Below are positions 2,626 through 17,154 of a stretch of DNA of 64,000 bases, one piece after another. Source of the stretch: Eledone cirrhosa (Eukaryota); contig OZ024764.1 of assembly GCA_964016885.1 (NCBI GenBank), positions 19,406,001 through 19,470,000 of the forward strand, given 5' to 3'. Every line of letters begins with the position of its first letter. Position 1 is the first letter of the stretch. A model generated the notes under the pieces. The model was not told the origin of the DNA, searched no databases, and saw only the letters and a list, made by a program, of their open reading frames with translations. Made by a program: the position numbers and the translations under genes.

Positions 2626-3156
2626 AATGCTGCCAGTGTGTTGGCTTGCCTCAAAGTGTGTAGTTAACCCCTAAGGTGTGAGGTGTGGCCTATTATCACA
2701 CTTGGTGGTCAATTGCCATCTCCCACTGTGTTTTTCTTTCCTTTATCATTATTGTTCAATAAATTATATTATTATACACAGTTTAGACAATATATTTTTA
2801 ATGTCTTTCTCAAGGAATTGCCAGCAATTTATAATGTTATTTACACACTTATGTTATTTATGTATATATTGAAAACATATTTACAACGTTATTCTACTGT
2901 AAATTTATACAATTGTAATAAAATATATTAATTATATCATCACATAATATAAAAACGACCTTTAGAATATTTAAATATTTAGTTTTGTTAATTTATTTTT
3001 CAGCAACAACAAAAGTTTTCACTTTAATTAATTAGAGGTAGGTAAAATATAGATAATTACGATAACATTTTATATTTCCAGTAATGAAACAAACAAGAAA
3101 ATATATATTTGTGATGTGAAAAGTGAGCTTAAATCTACAATATTAATAGACATAAT

Positions 3157-3300
3157 ACTTACATTATAGTCTCAGGTGTTTAGTATTTACAGAAATGTTT
3201 TCTAAATGATATTGTAGGAAGACTAACACGTGGACAGGAAGTCGACAACTGCACCACTGCGCATGCTTCAATGTCAAAGGTCAAGTTTTTGTGTGACGTA
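3157..3300. promoter_or_regulatory. Putative promoter plus short minus-strand first exon, copy A
   Basis: CACGTG (3227), CAGGAAGT (3235), TGCGCATGC (3258) and TGACGT (3294) cluster within 75 bp of AT-rich DNA; minus-strand donor GTAAGT at 3162-3157. Confidence 0.6.
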
Positions 3301-3343
3301 AATATTTTTACCGAATTAAATTATGTAAAGTTTGTAATAAAAA

Positions 3344-3591
3344 CGTGGGTATGGTGTGGCGTGCGGTGGCCGGAAGCGGGGGATTGCCCGACCGGAAGGG
3401 TGCTTGGCCGGAAGGATGCTCGACCGGAAGGGCCAGCAGATGGCGCTCTCTAGTGGTGACCAGCAACGGTGTAGACGCGAGTTTTGGCATCTCCCGGTGT
3501 TAAGGAGTTGGACGCACGTGGGAGAGGAGAGACCAGCAGTGGAAGTTAGCGGCGCCTATGAAAAGCGGTGAGATAGCTTTTTCTAACCACA
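3344..3591 (+). repeat. 5' LTR
   Basis: (c)GTGGG...AACCACA; direct repeat of 7185-7434. Confidence 0.9.
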
Positions 3592-3603
3592 AGCTATTTC
3601 GGC
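3592..3603 (+). promoter_or_regulatory. Putative non-canonical primer-binding site (complement of tRNA-Phe nt 1-12)
   Basis: AGCTATTTCGGC abuts the LTR-terminal CA; its reverse complement GCCGAAATAGCT is the 5' end of metazoan tRNA-Phe(GAA). Confidence 0.6.
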
Positions 3604-3711
3604 ACTGGAAACTGAGATCTGATTGAAAAAAAATAAATAAATAAAGCTACTGGAAAAACAGAGAGGAGTCTGTTGTTTTTTTTTATCACGTACCGCAAGA
3701 CAAATTAGAAG

Positions 3712-4386
3712 ATGGCGTCAAGACTACGAACAAGCGAAGCTATCAGGGCATTTACCGGGGTAGGTGTTGTCGCTTGGCTGCGAAAAGTCCGGCTGGTCGC
3801 AAGCTTGCAGAAGATAGAAGATGTGGCTGGCCTCATGGCACTGTACCTCGAGGGGGACACGTTGGTACTCTTCCTTGAGTTGGACGAACACAGCGAAAGA
3901 GATGCGCAAAAGATTGAGAGGCGCATGATGGAAGCGTTCGCAGAGGCACCGTTAGCCGCTTTCGCTAAGCTGGCAAGAATTAGATGGAACGGTGAACACG
4001 TTGATATTTTCGCAGCGGAAATACGGCGATTGGCCATGTTGGCTGGATATCAGGTGGAATGCGAATGCACGGTGCGGTTGGCGTTCATAAATGGATTTCC
4101 AGACGACATAGCGGTGAAACTGCAGCAAGTCCCGGGTTACAAAGAAATGGAAATGCATTCACTGGTGGAACAAGCCCGGATTATAGCAGAAGATGCCAAG
4201 AAGAGTGTTGCAGCGATAGCAACTACAGAGGCTCAAGACAGCTGGCAGCGAAATGGTGAAAGGGAGGCAACCACGGCACGCGGCCGCCCGCGAACGTTTA
4301 GAGGTCGCTGTTTTTGGTGCCAGGGACCGCACATGGCTAGAGACTGCAGAGAGTCAAGGCTGGAAATAATATGCTACCGGTATTAA
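3712..4386 (+). CDS. gag: Gag-like protein of the LTR element
   Basis: 224-aa ORF with W..K..LVA, ALYLEG, LAFINGFP and zinc knuckle CFWCQGPHMARDC; second knuckle truncated (ICYRY*). Confidence 0.8.
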   Translation: MASRLRTSEAIRAFTGVGVVAWLRKVRLVASLQKIEDVAGLMALYLEGDTLVLFLELDEHSERDAQKIERRMMEAFAEAPLAAFAKLARIRWNGEHVDIFAAEIRRLAMLAGYQVECECTVRLAFINGFPDDIAVKLQQVPGYKEMEMHSLVEQARIIAEDAKKSVAAIATTEAQDSWQRNGEREATTARGRPRTFRGRCFWCQGPHMARDCRESRLEIICYRY

Positions 4387-4439
4387 CTGCGACCAGGGAA
4401 ACAATCCAAGGGGAACTACTGCGCCGGTAGTTTCCCCTT

Positions 4440-7169
4440 ACGAGTAGAGGCGCTGCCCGTGGTGGAAGTCTTCGTGAGGGGAAAGCCACAGCGAGCACTC
4501 GTGGACACGGGCTGTTTGACGACACTGATGGCGCAGGGGTGGAGAGGGAAGAGCAGTGTAAGGGCAGTCGACGGCAGGAAAATTGAATGCTGAGGTCGCA
4601 GCGAGATGGAAATAGCGGTACGGGGAAGGAAAGTAAGGTGGATGGGATTGGCGTGGTTATGGGCATGGACGCAATTGGCCGTCTAAGAGGCGTCACAGTG
4701 AACAACGTCGGTGTGCCGTTTAGCGCCGCTACATCGGTATGCGCTGTGAGTGCGCGACAGGAGAACCAGAAGGCCCACGAGGAGAAATACCCCGCTTACA
4801 CTGTGCAGGACAAAGACTTCAAGGCCGTGTGCAATGGGTTGTTGAGTGGTACTGGAAGGGAGAACCACCAACACTGAAGACCAAAGTGGGCTGCTATCAA
4901 CACACATTGAAAGGAAACTATTAGGAGCGAGTTCGAGCGAGAGGTAGAGAGATGGATTGAGGAGGGCATACTGCTTCCCTGGAAAGAGGAGGTGAAGTGC
5001 AGAGTATTGCCGTTAATGGCGGTGGCGCAACCCACGAAGAACAAGGTGAGGCCGGTGCTGGACTTTCGGGAGCTGAACGAGCACCTGTCATGCCACACGG
5101 GTGGCGAGGTCACGGATGTCTGTGGGGAAACCCTGCGTGAGTGGAGATGCATGACGGGGGGTTCAGCAATCGTAGATCTAAAGTCGGCTTACTTGCAATT
5201 GCATATAGATGAGAAGCTCTGGCAGTATCAGCTGGTCAGGTATAAGGGCCGGACATATTGCCTGACCAAGCTCGGATTCGGGCTGAGCTCCGCACCGAAG
5301 ATCATGGCGGCGGTCCTCAAGACCATTCTGGGAAAGGCCGACAAGATGAAGTGGGCCACTAACTCCTATATTGACGACATCCTAGTGGACGAGTCTGTGG
5401 TGGCGGCGGAGGTCACGAGCCATTTACAGGGGTATGGACTGGCTGCGAAGCCGTCAGAAGCGTTGGAGGGAGGAGCCGCGCTGGGACTTAGGCTACGGCG
5501 AGACAGGACGGGCGTCTTGGTATTCCAGAGGGGAAACGAAGTTCCAGAACTGGGCCCAAGTATGAGTAGGCGGGAGCTTTTCTCGGTGTGTGGAAAGTTG
5601 GTGGGTCACTACCCGATTGCTGGGTGGCTCCGGACGGCATGCAGCTATGTCAAGAGACGAGCGGGAGGGGTGACTTGGAGTGACAGAGCGGGAGAGAGGA
5701 TGGTGGCCATGATGCAGGAGATCGTGGGGAGGGTGAAGGCCGACGACCCAGTGCGGCGACGCTGGTATGTTCCCAAATCACAGAGCGGGACCGTATGGTG
5801 CGATGCCAGCAGCATAGCGCTGGGTGTCACGTTGGAGATAGGAGGTGTTGAGGTCGAGAATGCATCAATGTGGCCGAACTGGACGCAGTGTTGAGAGGGG
5901 TGAACCTCGCCCTGAGGTGGGGACTGCGCACCATCGAGAAATGCACCGACTCGGCTACTGTACTCGGATGGGTGAGATCAGTGCTCACCAGTGAGAAGAG
6001 AGGCGCGGCGGAGATGCTGATAAAGCGCCGCCTGGGAACTTTAGGAGAGCTGGCCACCGAGTTCGTTCTGAGGCTGAGCGTAGTTTTCGTGCCCTCAGAG
6101 AAAAATAGGGTGGACATCTTAACTAGGGTGAAGAAAGCCTGGATGGAAGCGCCGGAGGAGGTAGAAGATGAGATAGCTGCCGTGTGTCGGCTGACCGAGT
6201 CGGATCTGAAAGGGTTGCATGACATGCACCACATGGGAGTGGATAGGAGCCTGTTCCTAGCCAGGAGAATCGACTCGGACGTTAACAGTCTCAGTGTTCA
6301 AAGGGTGGTTAGAGGCTGCGTCCGATGCCAGTCCATTGATTCCGCCCCGGGTGTACACGAAACGGGAAGCCTCCCAGTGGATCGCGACTGGAAGCGATTG
6401 GCGGTGGATGTAACGCACTACCGACAGGGAACATACCTCTCGATGGTCAACTGTGGACCAGGACGGATGGCGATATGGAGGGAGATGAAGACTGGAACGG
6501 CCGAGGAAATCATGCGGGCGTTGAGAGGTGTTCTTGGAGCGGGGCCCTGTGGACGAACTGCTGATGGACAACGGCGCAGCGTTCCACTCGGAGGCACTGA
6601 GGGAGATGCTCGACGGATGGAAGGTGGACGTTTCTTCAGAGCGGCGCACAGGCCGAGCGGGAATGGAATCGTGGAGCGACACCACCGGACGATCAAGGCA
6701 ATAGCGGAGCGGGGCCATATCTCACCAATGGAGGCAGTGTTCTGGTACAATGTCCCCTCGGGTTGGACAGGTCGAGGAATCGGTGCCACATAGAGCAGTA
6801 TTCAAATACGAGTGGCGGCACCCGTGCACGCCACCACAACGGCCAGTGGGGAGAGAGAGTGCATTCGTGCAGGTAGGCGAAGAAGTCTGGGTTAAGCCCC
6901 CAGATGCACGTTGCACATCTCAATGGGGAAGGGGAACAGTGACGGCCGTAAATTCAAAGAAAAATGTGTCCGTGGACGGGGTGCCACGTCATGTCCTGGA
7001 CGTAAGAAGAATCACTGTGTCGACGGACTCCGAGGAAGAGGAAACCCAAGATGAGGTGGGAACCCAGAGCTCTGCCCCAATACTACGAAGATCTCAACGA
7101 AGTCGTAGACCACCGACCTGGACAGCAGACTTTCATATGCAGAGGGACGAGGGGGAAATTGATCCTTGA
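4440..7169 (+). pseudogene. pol: pol (aspartic protease, RT, RNase H, integrase) split by frameshifts
   Basis: ALVDTG (D at 4504); ORF 4992-5894 RPVLDFRELN, VDLKSAYLQ, LGFGLSSAP, YIDD, WCDASS; ORF 5870-6793 AELDAV, TDS, H..HH..C..C, LAVDVTHY, GNGIVERHHRTIK; ORF 6750-7169 integrase C-terminal part. Confidence 0.88.
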
Positions 7170-7184
7170 GATCAGGGGGGGGCG

Positions 7185-7434
7185 TGTGGGTATGGTGTGG
7201 CGTGCGGTGGCCTGAGGCGGGGGAATGCTCGACCGGAAGGTGTTTGGCTGGAAGGATGCTCGACCGGAAGGGCCAGCAGAGGGCCTCTCTCTAGTGGTGA
7301 CCAGCAAACGGTGTGGACGCGAGTTTTGGGCAGCTCCCGGTGTTAAGCAGATGGACGCACGTGGAAGAGGAGTAACCTGCAGTGGAATTTAACGGCGCCT
7401 GTGAAAAGCGGTGAGATAGCTTTTTCTAACCACA
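7185..7434 (+). repeat. 3' LTR, preceded by polypurine tract
   Basis: TGTGG...CCACA inverted termini; AGGGGGGGG at 7174-7182. Confidence 0.9.
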
Positions 7435-7438
7435 CATT

Positions 7439-7893
7439 CTAAACCTAAAACTCTGTGATTGTGTCTTGTCTGTAATGTAATACAGCCAAAACGGGGCATA
7501 ACGGGAAAATAGTTTGAAAGGAAGTTGACCCTGAAATGGGAACACAAACGGGATAAAATAAGTTTCACGTAGATCAGAGCACAGGTTCCCGAGATATGGG
7601 TTTTTCTGGTACCTTCATAAATAGAGAGAGAAAGATAATGGGTGTGTGAGTGAGAGAGCTGTTGGTGTTGTTGAACGAAATTTTTAAATTATAACAAGCG
7701 ACTTGTGTGTGTGTCTGTGACATATATATATACACACACACACACATATATATATACACACACGCATATATATATATATACATGGGCCTACCTACTAAAT
7801 TCATTTTACATTATAGACATGTCTGTGTATATTTTAATTATTTAAAAATTATTTTTAAAGGGAACGTCACCCAACAGGTCACAGGGTTTCTAG
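7439..7893 (+). mobile_element. Non-autonomous Helitron, copy in module B
   Basis: Hairpin remnant and CTAG|T at 7890-7894; internal (CA)n/(TA)n. Confidence 0.7.
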
Positions 7894-8296
7894 TAAGATT
7901 ATAAATACAAACACACAAAAAGATAGAATCAACTCAAACGTTTAATATCTCAGACCTCAGTAGATTACTGGAACTTTAATTTATCCACCCCGTTAGAATG
8001 AAAGACAAAGTTAACTTTGGTGGGATTTGAACTCATAACATAAAGGGTTGAAATCCCGCCGAGGTTAGCTTTGCCCTTCATCTTTACGGGGTTGATTTAA
8101 GATCTAATAATAGTTTCTGATTTAGACACAAGGTCGACAATGTTTGGGGGGAATAAGTTGATTAAATCAAACACAGTTACTGTGAGATCACTTCTTTGAT
8201 AGTTTGTTTAAAAATAACTGATTCACAATTTACGTATGAAAAGTTGACAAAGATTTACAAGTGGTGTTATCAATAAATAGGGTCTTCAAAGTAGCA

Positions 8297-8650
8297 GGAA
8301 ACGACTAGATTTGTAGATAAAGAAGTGGGAGACAGGATTATCGGAGTTTAGAAGAGCTACACACTTCTCCAGTTGGCTGGGAAATAATTATCTTTCCTTA
8401 TTATTTTTCTCGACCTCTTAGATGTTTGGAACCGACTTTTCTTCCTGAAAACGGAAACCCTTACCCTAATACTGGGGAATAAAACGTCTATTGCAAGTAT
8501 CTAAGGGGTCCAGGGAAAATATTGAAAAGGGGTCTAGAAAAAAATCTAAGAAAAATAATTATTTCCCACCCAACGTAAGGTGTGAGTAGATCTGTGAAAC
8601 ATCTCTTCGTATACTTTCACCCTACTTTTTCTACAAATCTAGTCGTTTCC
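8297..8650. mobile_element. MITE, copy B
   Basis: Perfect 21-bp TIR GGAAACGACTAGATTTGTAGA / TCTACAAATCTAGTCGTTTCC. Confidence 0.78.
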
Positions 8651-8875
8651 GTGAGGGTACCTGGTTATTTAAGCACCTTAGCTTCACCTTACTGAGGTGT
8701 TAGGTGATACCCGTGAGGGTACCTGGTTATTTAAGCACCTTAGCCTCATGATACTGAGGTGTCAGGTGATACCCGTGAGGGTACCTGGTTATTTCAGCAC
8801 CTTAGCCTCACCTTACTGAGGTGTCAGGTGATACCCGTGAGGGTACCTGGTTATTTCAGCACCTTAGCCTCACCA
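8649..8875. repeat. 62-bp minisatellite, ~3.6 units
   Basis: CCGTGAG at 8649, 8711, 8773, 8835. Confidence 0.9.
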
Positions 8876-9688: not shown

Positions 9689-9750
9689 AAGAAAATATAT
9701 ATTTGTGATGTGAAAAGTGAGCTTAAATCTACAATATTAATAGACATAAT

Positions 9751-9882
9751 ACTTACATTATAGTTTCAGGTGTTTAGTATTTACAGAAATGTTTTCTAAA
9801 TGTTGTTGTAGGAAGACTAACACGTGGACAGGAAGTCGACAACTGCACCACTGCGCATGCTTCAATGTTTTTTTGTGACGTA
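9751..9882. promoter_or_regulatory. Putative promoter plus minus-strand first exon, copy B
   Basis: CACGTG 9821, CAGGAAGT, TGCGCATGC, TGACGT 9876; minus donor GTAAGT 9756-9751; candidate plus-strand donors near 9968 and 10019. Confidence 0.6.
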
Positions 9883-10232
9883 AAAATATTTTTACCGAAT
9901 TAAATTACGTAAAGTTTGTAATAATAAAATGAAGTTGAAAACAGTAAATGTAATTAAAATAGAGAAAGTAAGGTGTTGGTGGTGAGGAATGGACGGTAGA
10001 CGTTTTACCTCAGTCTAGGTAGTGTATTTTACCTGTGTCACTCGGACAATAGCCAGCGATGACCACTACACCAACCACTCTCTCCTTCAGATGGTGTCCA
10101 CTTTCGTGAGTCTGTAGAATAACAGGGCAGTTGGAAGACAGAGGACAGCAGAAGAGGTCTTGACTTGAAAAGAGTATCACTTGATACCTCTATATAACCT
10201 GTTGGTAGAAATAGTAGGGTGCTGGATCAATC

Positions 10233-11167: not shown

Positions 11168-12220
<1,053 letters not shown>

Positions 12221-13993: not shown

Positions 13994-16345
13994 TTAGGCA
14001 AGGCGGGTCTTCTCTATTACTGAGTACCGCCAAAGGTCTCGGTCCAGTGACATTGTCTTGGAGAGGTGTAAGTGTGTGAGGTCGGAGTTTATCAGCTCGT
14101 CCCAGGATTTTCTAGGTCTGCCTATTCCGTGGCTACCGTCTATCTTTATTGCCCTGCACTTTGTTATACAGCTATCGACTTTCATGCGCATCACGTGTCC
14201 ATACCAACGTAGCCTTCTCTCGAGTAAACAACATCTGATCCCTCTTATTTCTAATTTTTTCCTTAGTTCGTTTATGCTTTGCCGTTCACGTATATTACTA
14301 TTACACATCCAGCGGAGCATGCAAGCTTCGTTCCTCTCTAGTCTGCGTATATCCTCTGCACACAATGCCCAGGTCTCACTGCCATGCAACATTGCTGTTC
14401 GTATGCAGGCATCATACAACCTGCCTTTCATTTTTAGGGAGAACCCTTTAGCGGCTAATAGTGGTATAAGCTCTCTGAACTTTTTCCATCCAGTTCTGAC
14501 TCTAGCTACTGTACTTTCAGAGCATCCTCCCCCACTGCTGATTTTGTCACCCAGGTAACGGAAGCTGTCCACTATTTCTATAGAGCCCTCTGCGCAGTTG
14601 TAAGAGCTAGTATTTTGTGGGCACTCGCTGCTACTTATTGCACCAGAGCACCGCCCACATGTAAAATCTATGTTCTTAGTTAGCTTACCTGTGATCCCAC
14701 TACATCTTTTATGCACCCATACTTTGCATTTGGGACATAAAATGGAGTTTCTACCTACGCCTTTCCTACACACTGAGCATGGCCATTTCCCGGAAGGGAC
14801 CGCCGCCTTATTTTCTTTCCTACAAACTAGAACTTTAGTCTTAGCCAGGTTAATTTTAAGGCCTTTTGATTCTAGGCCGTGCTTCCATGTTTGGAATTTC
14901 TTCTCTAGCTCGGCCATTGATTCAGCTATGAGTGTCAGGTCGTCTGCGTATAGGAGTTCCCATGGGCAGCCGGTCTTGAACTCCTCTGTTATAGCCTGAA
15001 GGGCAATAATAAATAGTAGGGGGCTGAGAACAGAGCCCCGATGGACGCCAACTTTTACGCTAAACTCTTCACTATATTCGTTAATTCTAACCGTGCTGGC
15101 TGTTTCTTTATACGTAGCTTGTATAGCTCTCACAAGCCATTCGTCGACACCTAGTTTTCTAAGGGCCCACCAGATAATGGAACGGGGGACTCTGTCGAAG
15201 GCTTTCTCCAAGTCGACAAAAGCTAAGTAGAGGGGTTTACCTTTAGCTAGGTACTTCTCCTGTAGTTGACGTACAATGAAAAGAGCGTCTGTGGTACTTT
15301 TGCCTGACACAAACCCGAACTGCATTTCATCTAGGTCAATTCTCTCTCTGATTAGTTGCGCTATTACTTTTTCCGTGACCTTCATGACCTGGTCGATTAA
15401 TTTAATGCCTCTATAGTTACTCCTATCTAGGGCATCTCCTTTACCCTTATAACAGTTAATGATGATGCTGCTATGCCAGTCCTTCGGAACAACCCCATTC
15501 TGTACGACTTGGTTAACTATCCGGGTGACCATGGTGTGTCCCACCGTGCCAGATGCCTTCAGCATCTCAGCAACTATTTCCGAAGGCCCAGCCGCCTTAC
15601 CCGTCTTCATATCCTTGATTGCCTTACTTATTATACTACCCTCGACTAACACTGCTGGTCCCTCTATTGGGTCAATATGGGGGAGACTGTCTTTCTCCCA
15701 TTTATTCTCCTCATTTAGTAGCCTTTCATAGTGACACTTCCAAGCTACCTTCTTATCAGCGTCGGTGATGGCAAGTACGCCGTCATCATTAAGTACACAC
15801 TTCTCCCCGACAATATCACGGTTTTCCTTGACACATTGCCTAGCAATCCTGAACACCTCACGTTTTTGGTCCTCGCGTTGTAGAACATGCTTGAACTTTC
15901 TTTCCTCTGCTTCCCTTCTTGCAAAGTACACTTGTCTCCTAGCTTCCCTCCTGGCCACTTGATAGTCTTCTCTACTTCCCCCATCCCGCCATACTTTCCA
16001 AGCCTTTTTTTTGGCCTTAATTGACCCCTCCACCTTACTGTTCCACCACCATGTTACTCTCCTCCTGCCAACAGGCCTGCTCCAGCCACAGACTTCGTCT
16101 GTCGCCATCAGCAGGTTTGCTTTCAGAAATTCCCACTGTCCCTCTATATTGTCCAACTCTAAATGCTCTTCCTTACTGTCGAAAGCATCAAGTAATATGC
16201 TTTGAAATTTATTTCTGGCTGTGGGGTCCTTTAGCTTCCATATTTTTCTCCTGAGGATAGTCCTCTTCTGCTGTCGAGTACGTCTCGTCCTGACTATGAG
16301 GTCGCTAATTATCAGTCTATGTTGGGAGGTGCATTCTTCATGCAC
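13994..16345 (-). CDS. RTE reverse transcriptase (783-aa part after a frameshift)
   Basis: NYRGIKL, QFGF, FVDLEKAFDRV, GVHRGSVLSP (Q>R), LLYADD, FRYLG, RLRWYGHV, GRPRKSW. Confidence 0.9.
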   Translation of the reverse strand: MHEECTSQHRLIISDLIVRTRRTRQQKRTILRRKIWKLKDPTARNKFQSILLDAFDSKEEHLELDNIEGQWEFLKANLLMATDEVCGWSRPVGRRRVTWWWNSKVEGSIKAKKKAWKVWRDGGSREDYQVARREARRQVYFARREAEERKFKHVLQREDQKREVFRIARQCVKENRDIVGEKCVLNDDGVLAITDADKKVAWKCHYERLLNEENKWEKDSLPHIDPIEGPAVLVEGSIISKAIKDMKTGKAAGPSEIVAEMLKASGTVGHTMVTRIVNQVVQNGVVPKDWHSSIIINCYKGKGDALDRSNYRGIKLIDQVMKVTEKVIAQLIRERIDLDEMQFGFVSGKSTTDALFIVRQLQEKYLAKGKPLYLAFVDLEKAFDRVPRSIIWWALRKLGVDEWLVRAIQATYKETASTVRINEYSEEFSVKVGVHRGSVLSPLLFIIALQAITEEFKTGCPWELLYADDLTLIAESMAELEKKFQTWKHGLESKGLKINLAKTKVLVCRKENKAAVPSGKWPCSVCRKGVGRNSILCPKCKVWVHKRCSGITGKLTKNIDFTCGRCSGAISSSECPQNTSSYNCAEGSIEIVDSFRYLGDKISSGGGCSESTVARVRTGWKKFRELIPLLAAKGFSLKMKGRLYDACIRTAMLHGSETWALCAEDIRRLERNEACMLRWMCNSNIRERQSINELRKKLEIRGIRCCLLERRLRWYGHVMRMKVDSCITKCRAIKIDGSHGIGRPRKSWDELINSDLTHLHLSKTMSLDRDLWRYSVIEKTRLA

Positions 16346-17030
16346 AGGGGGAGGGATTTAGTGTTTACAACAGACACTCTGTCACGTCTTCTGGTAAGGA
16401 TATAATCTACCTGGCTTGTGTGTTCCCTGGATCTATAGGTGATCAGGTGATTGTCACGTTTTTTGAAGTTAGTGTTACAGATAGTTAGGTTATTTGAGTC
16501 ACAGAATTCCAGGATTCTGGAGCCTTCCTCATTTCTGGTACCAAACCCATAGCCTCCATGGACTTCGTCGTAGCCGTCACAATGTTGTCCAACGTGACCA
16601 TTTAGGTCGCCTGCAATAATTATATAGTCACTGTCGGTTATTTGGGAGGTAGTGAGCATCAGTGTCTCATAGAATCTGTCTTTTATAGTGCCGGGCAGAC
16701 CGGATTGGGGTGCGTACGCAGATATTACTGTCACTGTAGTTCTATTGAGGACAAGTCTTATTTTAATTATTCTGTCGTTCACTCTATTTACGTCTATTAT
16801 CTTATCTGCCCACTTTTCTGCTACCATGATTCCTACTCCACCCAGCCCATCGTCGTCGTTTCCCACCCACAAAAGCTTATAGCATCGTTCTTTACCCACG
16901 ATGAATCTAGCAGACCCACCCCTCCACCTGGTCTCTTGAATACAACAAACATCGACCTCCTTACGTTCAAGCATTTCTACAACCTCGTTAGTGCGACCCT
17001 TTAAGGTGCCTACATTTATGGTACCAACTC
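16312..17030 (-). CDS. RTE apurinic-endonuclease domain
   Basis: GTINV, CIQETRW, SAYAPQ, AGDLNGHVG, QVDYIL; QHRL lies in the next frame (frameshift at ~16350). Confidence 0.88.
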
Positions 17031-17154
17031 TGAATTTTGGATTGCGTTTGGAGGGCGGGGGCAGTGGGGGGCGGGGGGAGATGGGGTTATGTTAGCCGTC
17101 CGTGGTCGAAACAAAGAGGAGTGCTCGCATTCTCGTCCACGAGGTGAATTTGTC

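Follow-up and report, generated by a model that had tools for sequence, protein, structure and literature searches.

The accessible part of a survey of plant elements distinguishes three primer types: the whole tRNA, a half tRNA cleaved within the anticodon stem, and a self-primer (PMC6317226). Priming by the 3′-CCA end of a tRNA is given for retroviruses and most Ty3/gypsy elements in the available sections of PMC7773854 and PMC13524379; the latter, a survey of metazoan gypsy elements, tested just the last 12 nt of tRNAs, as far as its available text tells. Half-tRNA priming is listed for Drosophila copia, yeast Ty5, plant Osser, Bryco and Bianca, fungal Copia elements, and Helenus (PMC6317226 and PMC10886601, accessible parts). 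The second of these, a Repbase-based paper, adds further anticodon-loop primers in fungal Copia elements and, in its accessible sections, reports truncated primers for Copia only. The self-priming group comprises Tf1/Tf2, sushi, and Tcn1 (PMC7175516 and PMC6317226, accessible parts). In Tf1, the primer is 11 nt long, and RNase H cuts between bases 11 and 12 of the site-paired RNA 5′ end (PMC7175516, available sections). A conserved non-TGG hairpin at the position of the primer-binding site is described for fungal GalEa (PMC5445492, available sections). A site for the 5′ end of a tRNA is not described in the accessible parts of PMC7472051, PMC3601003, PMC5445492, PMC7515703, and PMC7773854, and we found no description of tRNA 5′-end priming in the papers searched, though one may exist in supplements, Repbase Reports, or subscription journals.

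The element and the sequence that follows its 5′ LTR

We analyzed a 64,000-nt stretch of the Eledone cirrhosa genome (the window). An LTR retrotransposon of 4.1 kb occupies positions 3344–7434 on the forward strand. The 5′ LTR (3344–3591) was delimited by alignment with the 3′ LTR (7185–7434, TGT...ACA), with which it shares the same base in 227 of 251 alignment columns; 5-bp target duplications flanking other copies set its end. Its first base is C in the window copy and T in most copies, and its end is ACA. Both TG...CA ends and 5-bp target duplications, which mark LTR retrotransposons, were found, the latter in other copies; a target-site duplication was absent around the window copy. The duplications that fix the LTR end were read by eye in L310, L317, L322, L325, L326, and L327 and were also present in L119.

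The gag gene (3712–4386) ends with a CCHC zinc knuckle. No match to it was obtained in the PDB sequence search, and PDB sequence searches in general gave weak retroviral matches only; the N-terminal part of gag of one relative resembled Ty3-type capsid proteins. The pol remnant (4453–7079) is interrupted by stops and frame changes, and its domain order, protease–RT–RNase H–integrase, was taken from relatives with one long ORF. In these relatives, the ORF of 1000–1250 aa encodes a zinc knuckle, protease, RT, DUF7047, RNase H, and integrase (Pfam, five proteins). The gag–PR–RT–RNase H–IN order was confirmed by Pfam in the five proteins and by the fold model of one relative, in which PR, RT, RNase H, and IN were recognized and no extra folded domain was seen. 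BEL/Pao-specific families were not among the Pfam hits of the five proteins. RVT_1 scores were close to or under the cut-off, and the structure hits for RT were retroviral and caulimoviral proteins at 10–19% identity; both indicate a deeply diverged lineage. By this predicted domain order, the element is filed as gypsy-type. Named protein relatives came from molluscs, crustaceans, a sea spider, a bryozoan, and nematodes.

A polypurine tract with a G run (7174–7184) lies directly 5′ of the 3′ LTR and is abutted by a 5-bp hairpin (7160–7174). Hairpins of 5–6 bp in this place were seen across the lineage (many of L073–L150); 26 of 57 candidates, some of them not at a true tract, folded with z below −1.5. 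The hairpin was considered as a second tRNA contact and rejected, the compensatory changes across the lineage indicating self-pairing.

The first-pass annotation of the window had fixed where the 5′ LTR ends by comparison with the 3′ LTR, and we reproduced this: both LTRs finish ...AACCACA (3585–3591 in the 5′ LTR), and the sequences then diverge. As it also reported, the 12-mer AGCTATTTCGGC stands at 3592–3603 flush with the ACA of the LTR, with no spacer and without TGG; it is a candidate primer-binding site, being the exact complement of nt 1–12 of host tRNA-Phe(GAA). Its wording of the tRNA 5′ end was right, since ARAGORN called Phe(GAA) in all five loci given to it and the gene begins at the first base of our pattern in the three printed loci. 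The start pattern had 228 matches in the host genome versus 0 for the control. The claimed 12/12 match proved to be the longest antisense match between window positions 3581–3625 and the whole tRNA, and nt 13 would mismatch the last A of the LTR. Neither a TGG near the LTR nor pairing with the tRNA 3′ end was found, so the arrangement is not that of canonical priming; pairing with the anticodon stem-loop, as in half-tRNA priming, was likewise not found, the best match being nt 1–12. In the same genome, tRNA-Phe and tRNA-Asn genes alternate in a tandem array of about 1.26 kb per unit (G000:C4:117.36–117.54 Mb; L034–L042).

Several other features of the window were recorded. Different host stretches are repeated on the left and right sides of the element (1294–2624, 7434–8805, 3095–3343, and 9689–9927), and its contig carries near-identical copies at other places; the element looks like a recombinant copy within a segmental duplication. 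A C2H2 zinc-finger array ORF and a minus-strand RT/endonuclease ORF pair, presumably an RTE-type LINE, were found at 11168–12025 and 13994–17091. From about 28.8 kb onward, there is a long tandem repeat of a 39-nt unit, which has a strong GC skew and, judging by composition, seems to occupy 28775–64000.

Conservation of the site in copies and relatives

Among close copies of the element, the 12-mer was exact in 28 of 30 and carried one substitution in the other two. Its flanks were conserved to the same degree; the within-family count therefore proves little and was dropped as evidence for the site, and the question had to be decided by distant relatives.

Genome-wide searches with three junction patterns gave 194, 92, and 427 matches versus 1, 1, and 0 for the controls. 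Sixty loci, with overlaps, were selected by junction pattern; they fell into ten LTR groups, in seven of which gag or RT adjoined the site. RT identity of the same-genome families to the window ranged from 49 to 92%, and their U5 and leader sequences differed. Since these families were found by the motif, they show its independence from U5 and not its frequency. When same-genome loci were selected by RT instead, 8 of the 11 fetched had the site (one of them with a single change); in three, a search allowing two mismatches did not find it, and one of these three had lost its leader. The host-type site was carried by all gag- or RT-bearing families seen in the window's genome; these families form one clade on the RT tree, so their uniform site may be due to descent.

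Some further traits of the LTR ends and leaders were observed. A splice-donor-like word lies 25–27 nt before the LTR end in the window (3567–3572), in L310 and L312, and in copies L010–L030; AATAAA was absent from the LTR ends of the families of the window's genome that have this word and was found 12–80 nt before the LTR end in many metagenome relatives. The leader holds a long A run after the site (window 3625–3645; L043–L072), and one subfamily has no sequence between the site and this run.

Distant relatives were represented by 78 metagenome loci fetched by RT alignment alone. The position test covered the 45 loci in which 1400 nt or more precede RT, and in 43 of these the site was found 1100–1750 nt upstream of RT; it was missing from L117 and L149. 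A looser motif occurred in 157 of 90,000 shuffled windows. With wrapped contigs counted, the site was visible in 58 of the 78 loci (11 of the 58 assigned by eye), and 18 of the 20 site-less loci have less than 1400 nt upstream of RT. Where a second LTR fixes the end, as in L106, L114, L119, and L123, the site stands flush after ACA. RT identity of site-bearing relatives to the window was as low as about 41%. The first-pass annotation had proposed as a check that the 12-mer be kept while its flanks drift, and this holds in the distant relatives (43/45), whose LTRs and leaders have diverged while the site persists.

In a profile partly built in by the search motif, conservation starts at the ACA of the LTR and falls directly after base 12. 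Among 61 sites, bases 2–5 were invariant, bases 1 and 10–12 varied rarely, and bases 7–9 often, a pattern which is again partly motif-built; past base 12, nothing was conserved save an A bias at 13. No TGG-type site was found at the LTR end in any locus with a junction read. The site is real and lineage-wide.

Relatives were not found in viral contigs, and two tRNA pattern scans of viral contigs gave no matches. Several metagenome loci (L124, L128, L108, L088, and L110) consist of head-to-tail units with one common LTR or of circularly permuted contigs, which represent tandem arrays, one-LTR circles, or assembly collapse; three runs contain L110 wholly or in part.

Site variants and tRNA gene starts

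The site is not invariable, and its middle bases, on the present comparison, show the kind of variation seen in tRNA acceptor stems. When tRNA-Phe genes were scanned for with positions 4–7 left free, 128 loci with 20 different starts were obtained; they are archaeal and, probably, contaminants of eukaryotic origin. Of the 58 sites, 41 exactly complement the start of a tRNA-Phe gene and fall into four variants: AGCTATTTCGGC (13 loci), AGCTATCGCGGC (10), AGCTATCACGGC (9), and AGCTATCTAGGC (9). The occurrence of four of the nine regular site variants among 20 tRNA variants of 256 possible corresponds to p = 0.003.

Two sites, with 4 and 5 changes, coincide exactly with other tRNAs. The site of L135, AGCTAGCCGGGC, is the exact complement (12/12) of nt 1–12 of tRNA-Lys(CUU), and that of L147, CGCTACCGAGGC, is the exact complement (12/12) of the elongator tRNA-Met start; both partners were guessed and then checked in the window's genome. 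The latter start was present in 70 of the 71 matches to the Met pattern in that genome; ARAGORN called one of five Met-pattern loci as Met and one as Tyr, leaving three uncalled, and the gene has an intron. In L147, the first base after CA is altered and pairs with nt 12 of tRNA-Met; its change to fit this nucleotide implies that pairing reaches the junction. Phe, which had been named as the primer tRNA, thus fits 41 of the 58 sites, and the claim does not extend to L135, which fits Lys(CUU), or to L147, which fits elongator Met. For Lys, Met, and three of the four Phe variants, the matching tRNAs come from organisms other than the hosts of the elements; a same-host match of site and tRNA was shown for the window's genome only.

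Lys(UUU) was rejected as the partner of AGCTATCCGGGC, having one mismatch to the genes of the window's genome. Fifteen of the 58 sites match no tRNA in the small reference sets used; these include three 11-nt forms and one 13-nt form. Such sites, one base short or long and in the right place (L093, L101, L104, and L150), reflect either decay or bulged pairing.

Foreign-type site variants had 21 matches in the window's genome, where the control hit a repeat and was hence uninformative. Neither gag nor RT was found at the eight of these matches that were fetched, and one of the 21 belongs to a copy of the window's family that carries a single change. No tRNA gene starts fitting the three common foreign site variants were found in the window's genome.

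The RT tree contained 71 rows (58 metagenome loci, 12 loci of the window's genome, and the window itself; one too-short locus of that genome was dropped). On this tree, the site changed 22 times among 15 states versus a shuffled mean of 42, which indicates that it is inherited and switches repeatedly. The variant AGCTACCTCGGC is common to three elements of one assembly that do not form a clade (p-AU 0.044, for a group named after the tree had been seen), a weak hint of host tracking.

Candidate priming mechanism and comparison with known systems

The complement of tRNA nt 1–12 stands at the position where the minus strand starts, and it persists across a deeply diverged lineage. Judged from these sequences, the 12-mer is probably, and with good confidence, the primer site for a 12-nt tRNA 5′ fragment that would start the minus strand flush with the LTR. 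This was the reading of the first-pass annotation, and it is supported: no TGG site appeared in other copies, the host tRNA-Phe has the 5′ end expected, and the 12-mer does not follow U5 across families.

In the proposed mechanism, the site would invade the acceptor stem and the D-stem of the tRNA, probably aided by the zinc knuckle of Gag; the tRNA would then be cleaved where the 12-bp duplex ends, and minus-strand synthesis would begin from the 3′-OH at about nt 12, flush with the LTR. That the site stops at tRNA nt 1 would reflect the end of the primer at this nucleotide. We infer that the primer 3′ end is nt 12, or lies 1–2 nt shorter if integrase trims the DNA end. Our leading, still tentative, candidate for the cutter is the RNase H of the element itself, acting in trans on the tRNA 5′ end, where the Tf1 enzyme acts in cis on the 5′ end of its own mRNA; it is favored because the geometry equals that of Tf1 with a tRNA as the partner. 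An RNase H domain is present in the relatives (Pfam and fold model). A host nuclease followed by trimming ranks second and seems rather unlikely. Variable extra bases after the site, predicted as a run-off signature, were not borne out in 83 copies (no extra base in 35, G in 40, C in 5, and A in 3); the extra base was rejected as such a signature, being a subfamily trait with 6 changes on the tree of these copies.

Self-priming of the Tf1 kind or priming by a U5 hairpin would make the tRNA match incidental, the 12-mer pairing with RNA of the element itself. U5 positions 3570–3579 of the window's family can indeed pair over 10 bp (one G-U) with 3591–3600. This pairing, G-U included, was seen in the window's family only, and no other LTR was found in which 10 nt or more could pair with the site; in 53 elements, the longest Watson–Crick match between the site and the upstream 300 nt averaged 4.96 versus 5.20 after shuffling, with a maximum of 7. 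Moreover, the same 12-mer is retained by families with unrelated U5, and self-priming leaves the exact fits to three tRNA isotypes unexplained. By these comparisons, self-priming is contradicted for the lineage and we give it hardly any credence; the U5 hairpin appears to be a trait of the window's family, perhaps a regulatory one. Just as little credence is due to a conserved protein-binding or integrase-end motif resembling a tRNA start by chance. The bases adjoining an LTR end can be under integrase constraint; however, the variable bases of the site take values present in real tRNA genes, and the sites of L135 and L147, with their 4 and 5 changes, fall exactly on other tRNAs.

Two further explanations keep the tRNA and dispense with its cleavage. 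The 12-mer could bind intact tRNA, or mimic its acceptor strand, in packaging, dimerisation, or regulation, with priming left to something else. In part, the site is indeed identical to the 3′ acceptor strand of the tRNA, which necessarily holds for every complement of nt 1–7, and imperfect sites occur in some loci. Against this, the site is located exactly where minus-strand synthesis must start, the junctions read offer no TGG-type alternative, and the site includes D-stem bases 8–12, which an acceptor mimic would not need; we consider the explanation improbable. Alternatively, an uncut tRNA could prime from an internal 2′-OH near nt 12, giving a branched product like that which retrons form through 2′-OH priming. 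Such priming needs no nuclease, in keeping with a fold model without an extra nuclease domain, and the sequence evidence fits it and a cut equally. Yet we know of no branch priming by LTR-type RTs, and the nucleotide facing the junction differs between the tRNAs (U in Phe and Lys, G in Met), unlike a fixed branch nucleotide; this explanation is quite improbable.

Priming by a tRNA 5′ fragment, our preferred reading, would be a new form of tRNA-fragment priming as far as the literature was searched, and a fourth primer type beside the three given in the accessible part of PMC6317226. In a conceivable fourth mode, to which we would give somewhat less than an even chance, a widespread, deeply diverged lineage of small gypsy-type elements would capture the 5′ end of a host tRNA, that of Phe or at times that of Lys or elongator Met, have it severed behind nt 12, probably by the RNase H of the element, and prime from the resulting 12-mer. 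If true, this would be an analogue of Tf1 self-priming that relies on a tRNA, and it would mean that a transposon generates tRNA fragments. It would connect tRNA priming with cut-and-prime of the Tf1 type, would bear on the origin of primer sites, and makes it directly testable whether an RT–RNase H can cleave a tRNA engaged in an RNA duplex. A further suggestion is that 5′ tRNA fragments, besides 3′ ones, could act as competitors or as helpers of retrotransposition. Annotation by tRNA 3′ ends alone misses the site in the whole group; the 3′-end-based methods of PMC7773854 and PMC13524379, as set out in their accessible parts, would score the present elements as site-less.

Compared with the described systems, as far as the available parts of the sources cited above characterize them, the present lineage shares features with each. 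Like canonical 3′-CCA priming, it involves a host tRNA, a site beside the 5′ LTR, and a lineage-typical isotype with occasional switches, but canonical priming uses the opposite end of the tRNA. With GalEa, it has in common a conserved non-TGG sequence at the position of the primer-binding site; the GalEa site, however, is palindromic, finds its complement within the element, and matches no tRNA, whereas the present site matches tRNA starts. Half-tRNA systems likewise have a 3′-truncated tRNA as the presumed primer and a site without TGG. They are reported for elements of the Copia type and pair with the anticodon stem-loop, while here pairing is with nt 1–12 and covers the whole presumed primer; the present lineage would further need a cut in the D-stem and has a gypsy-type domain order. 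The latter it shares with Tf1/Tf2, sushi, and Tcn1, together with a site of 11–12 nt that pairs with the extreme 5′ end of an RNA. In Tf1, a cut at the end of the duplex yields the primer, which for the present lineage is suggested by the geometry; the Tf1 primer is the 5′ end of its own mRNA, whereas here the LTR has no complement and the partner is a host tRNA.
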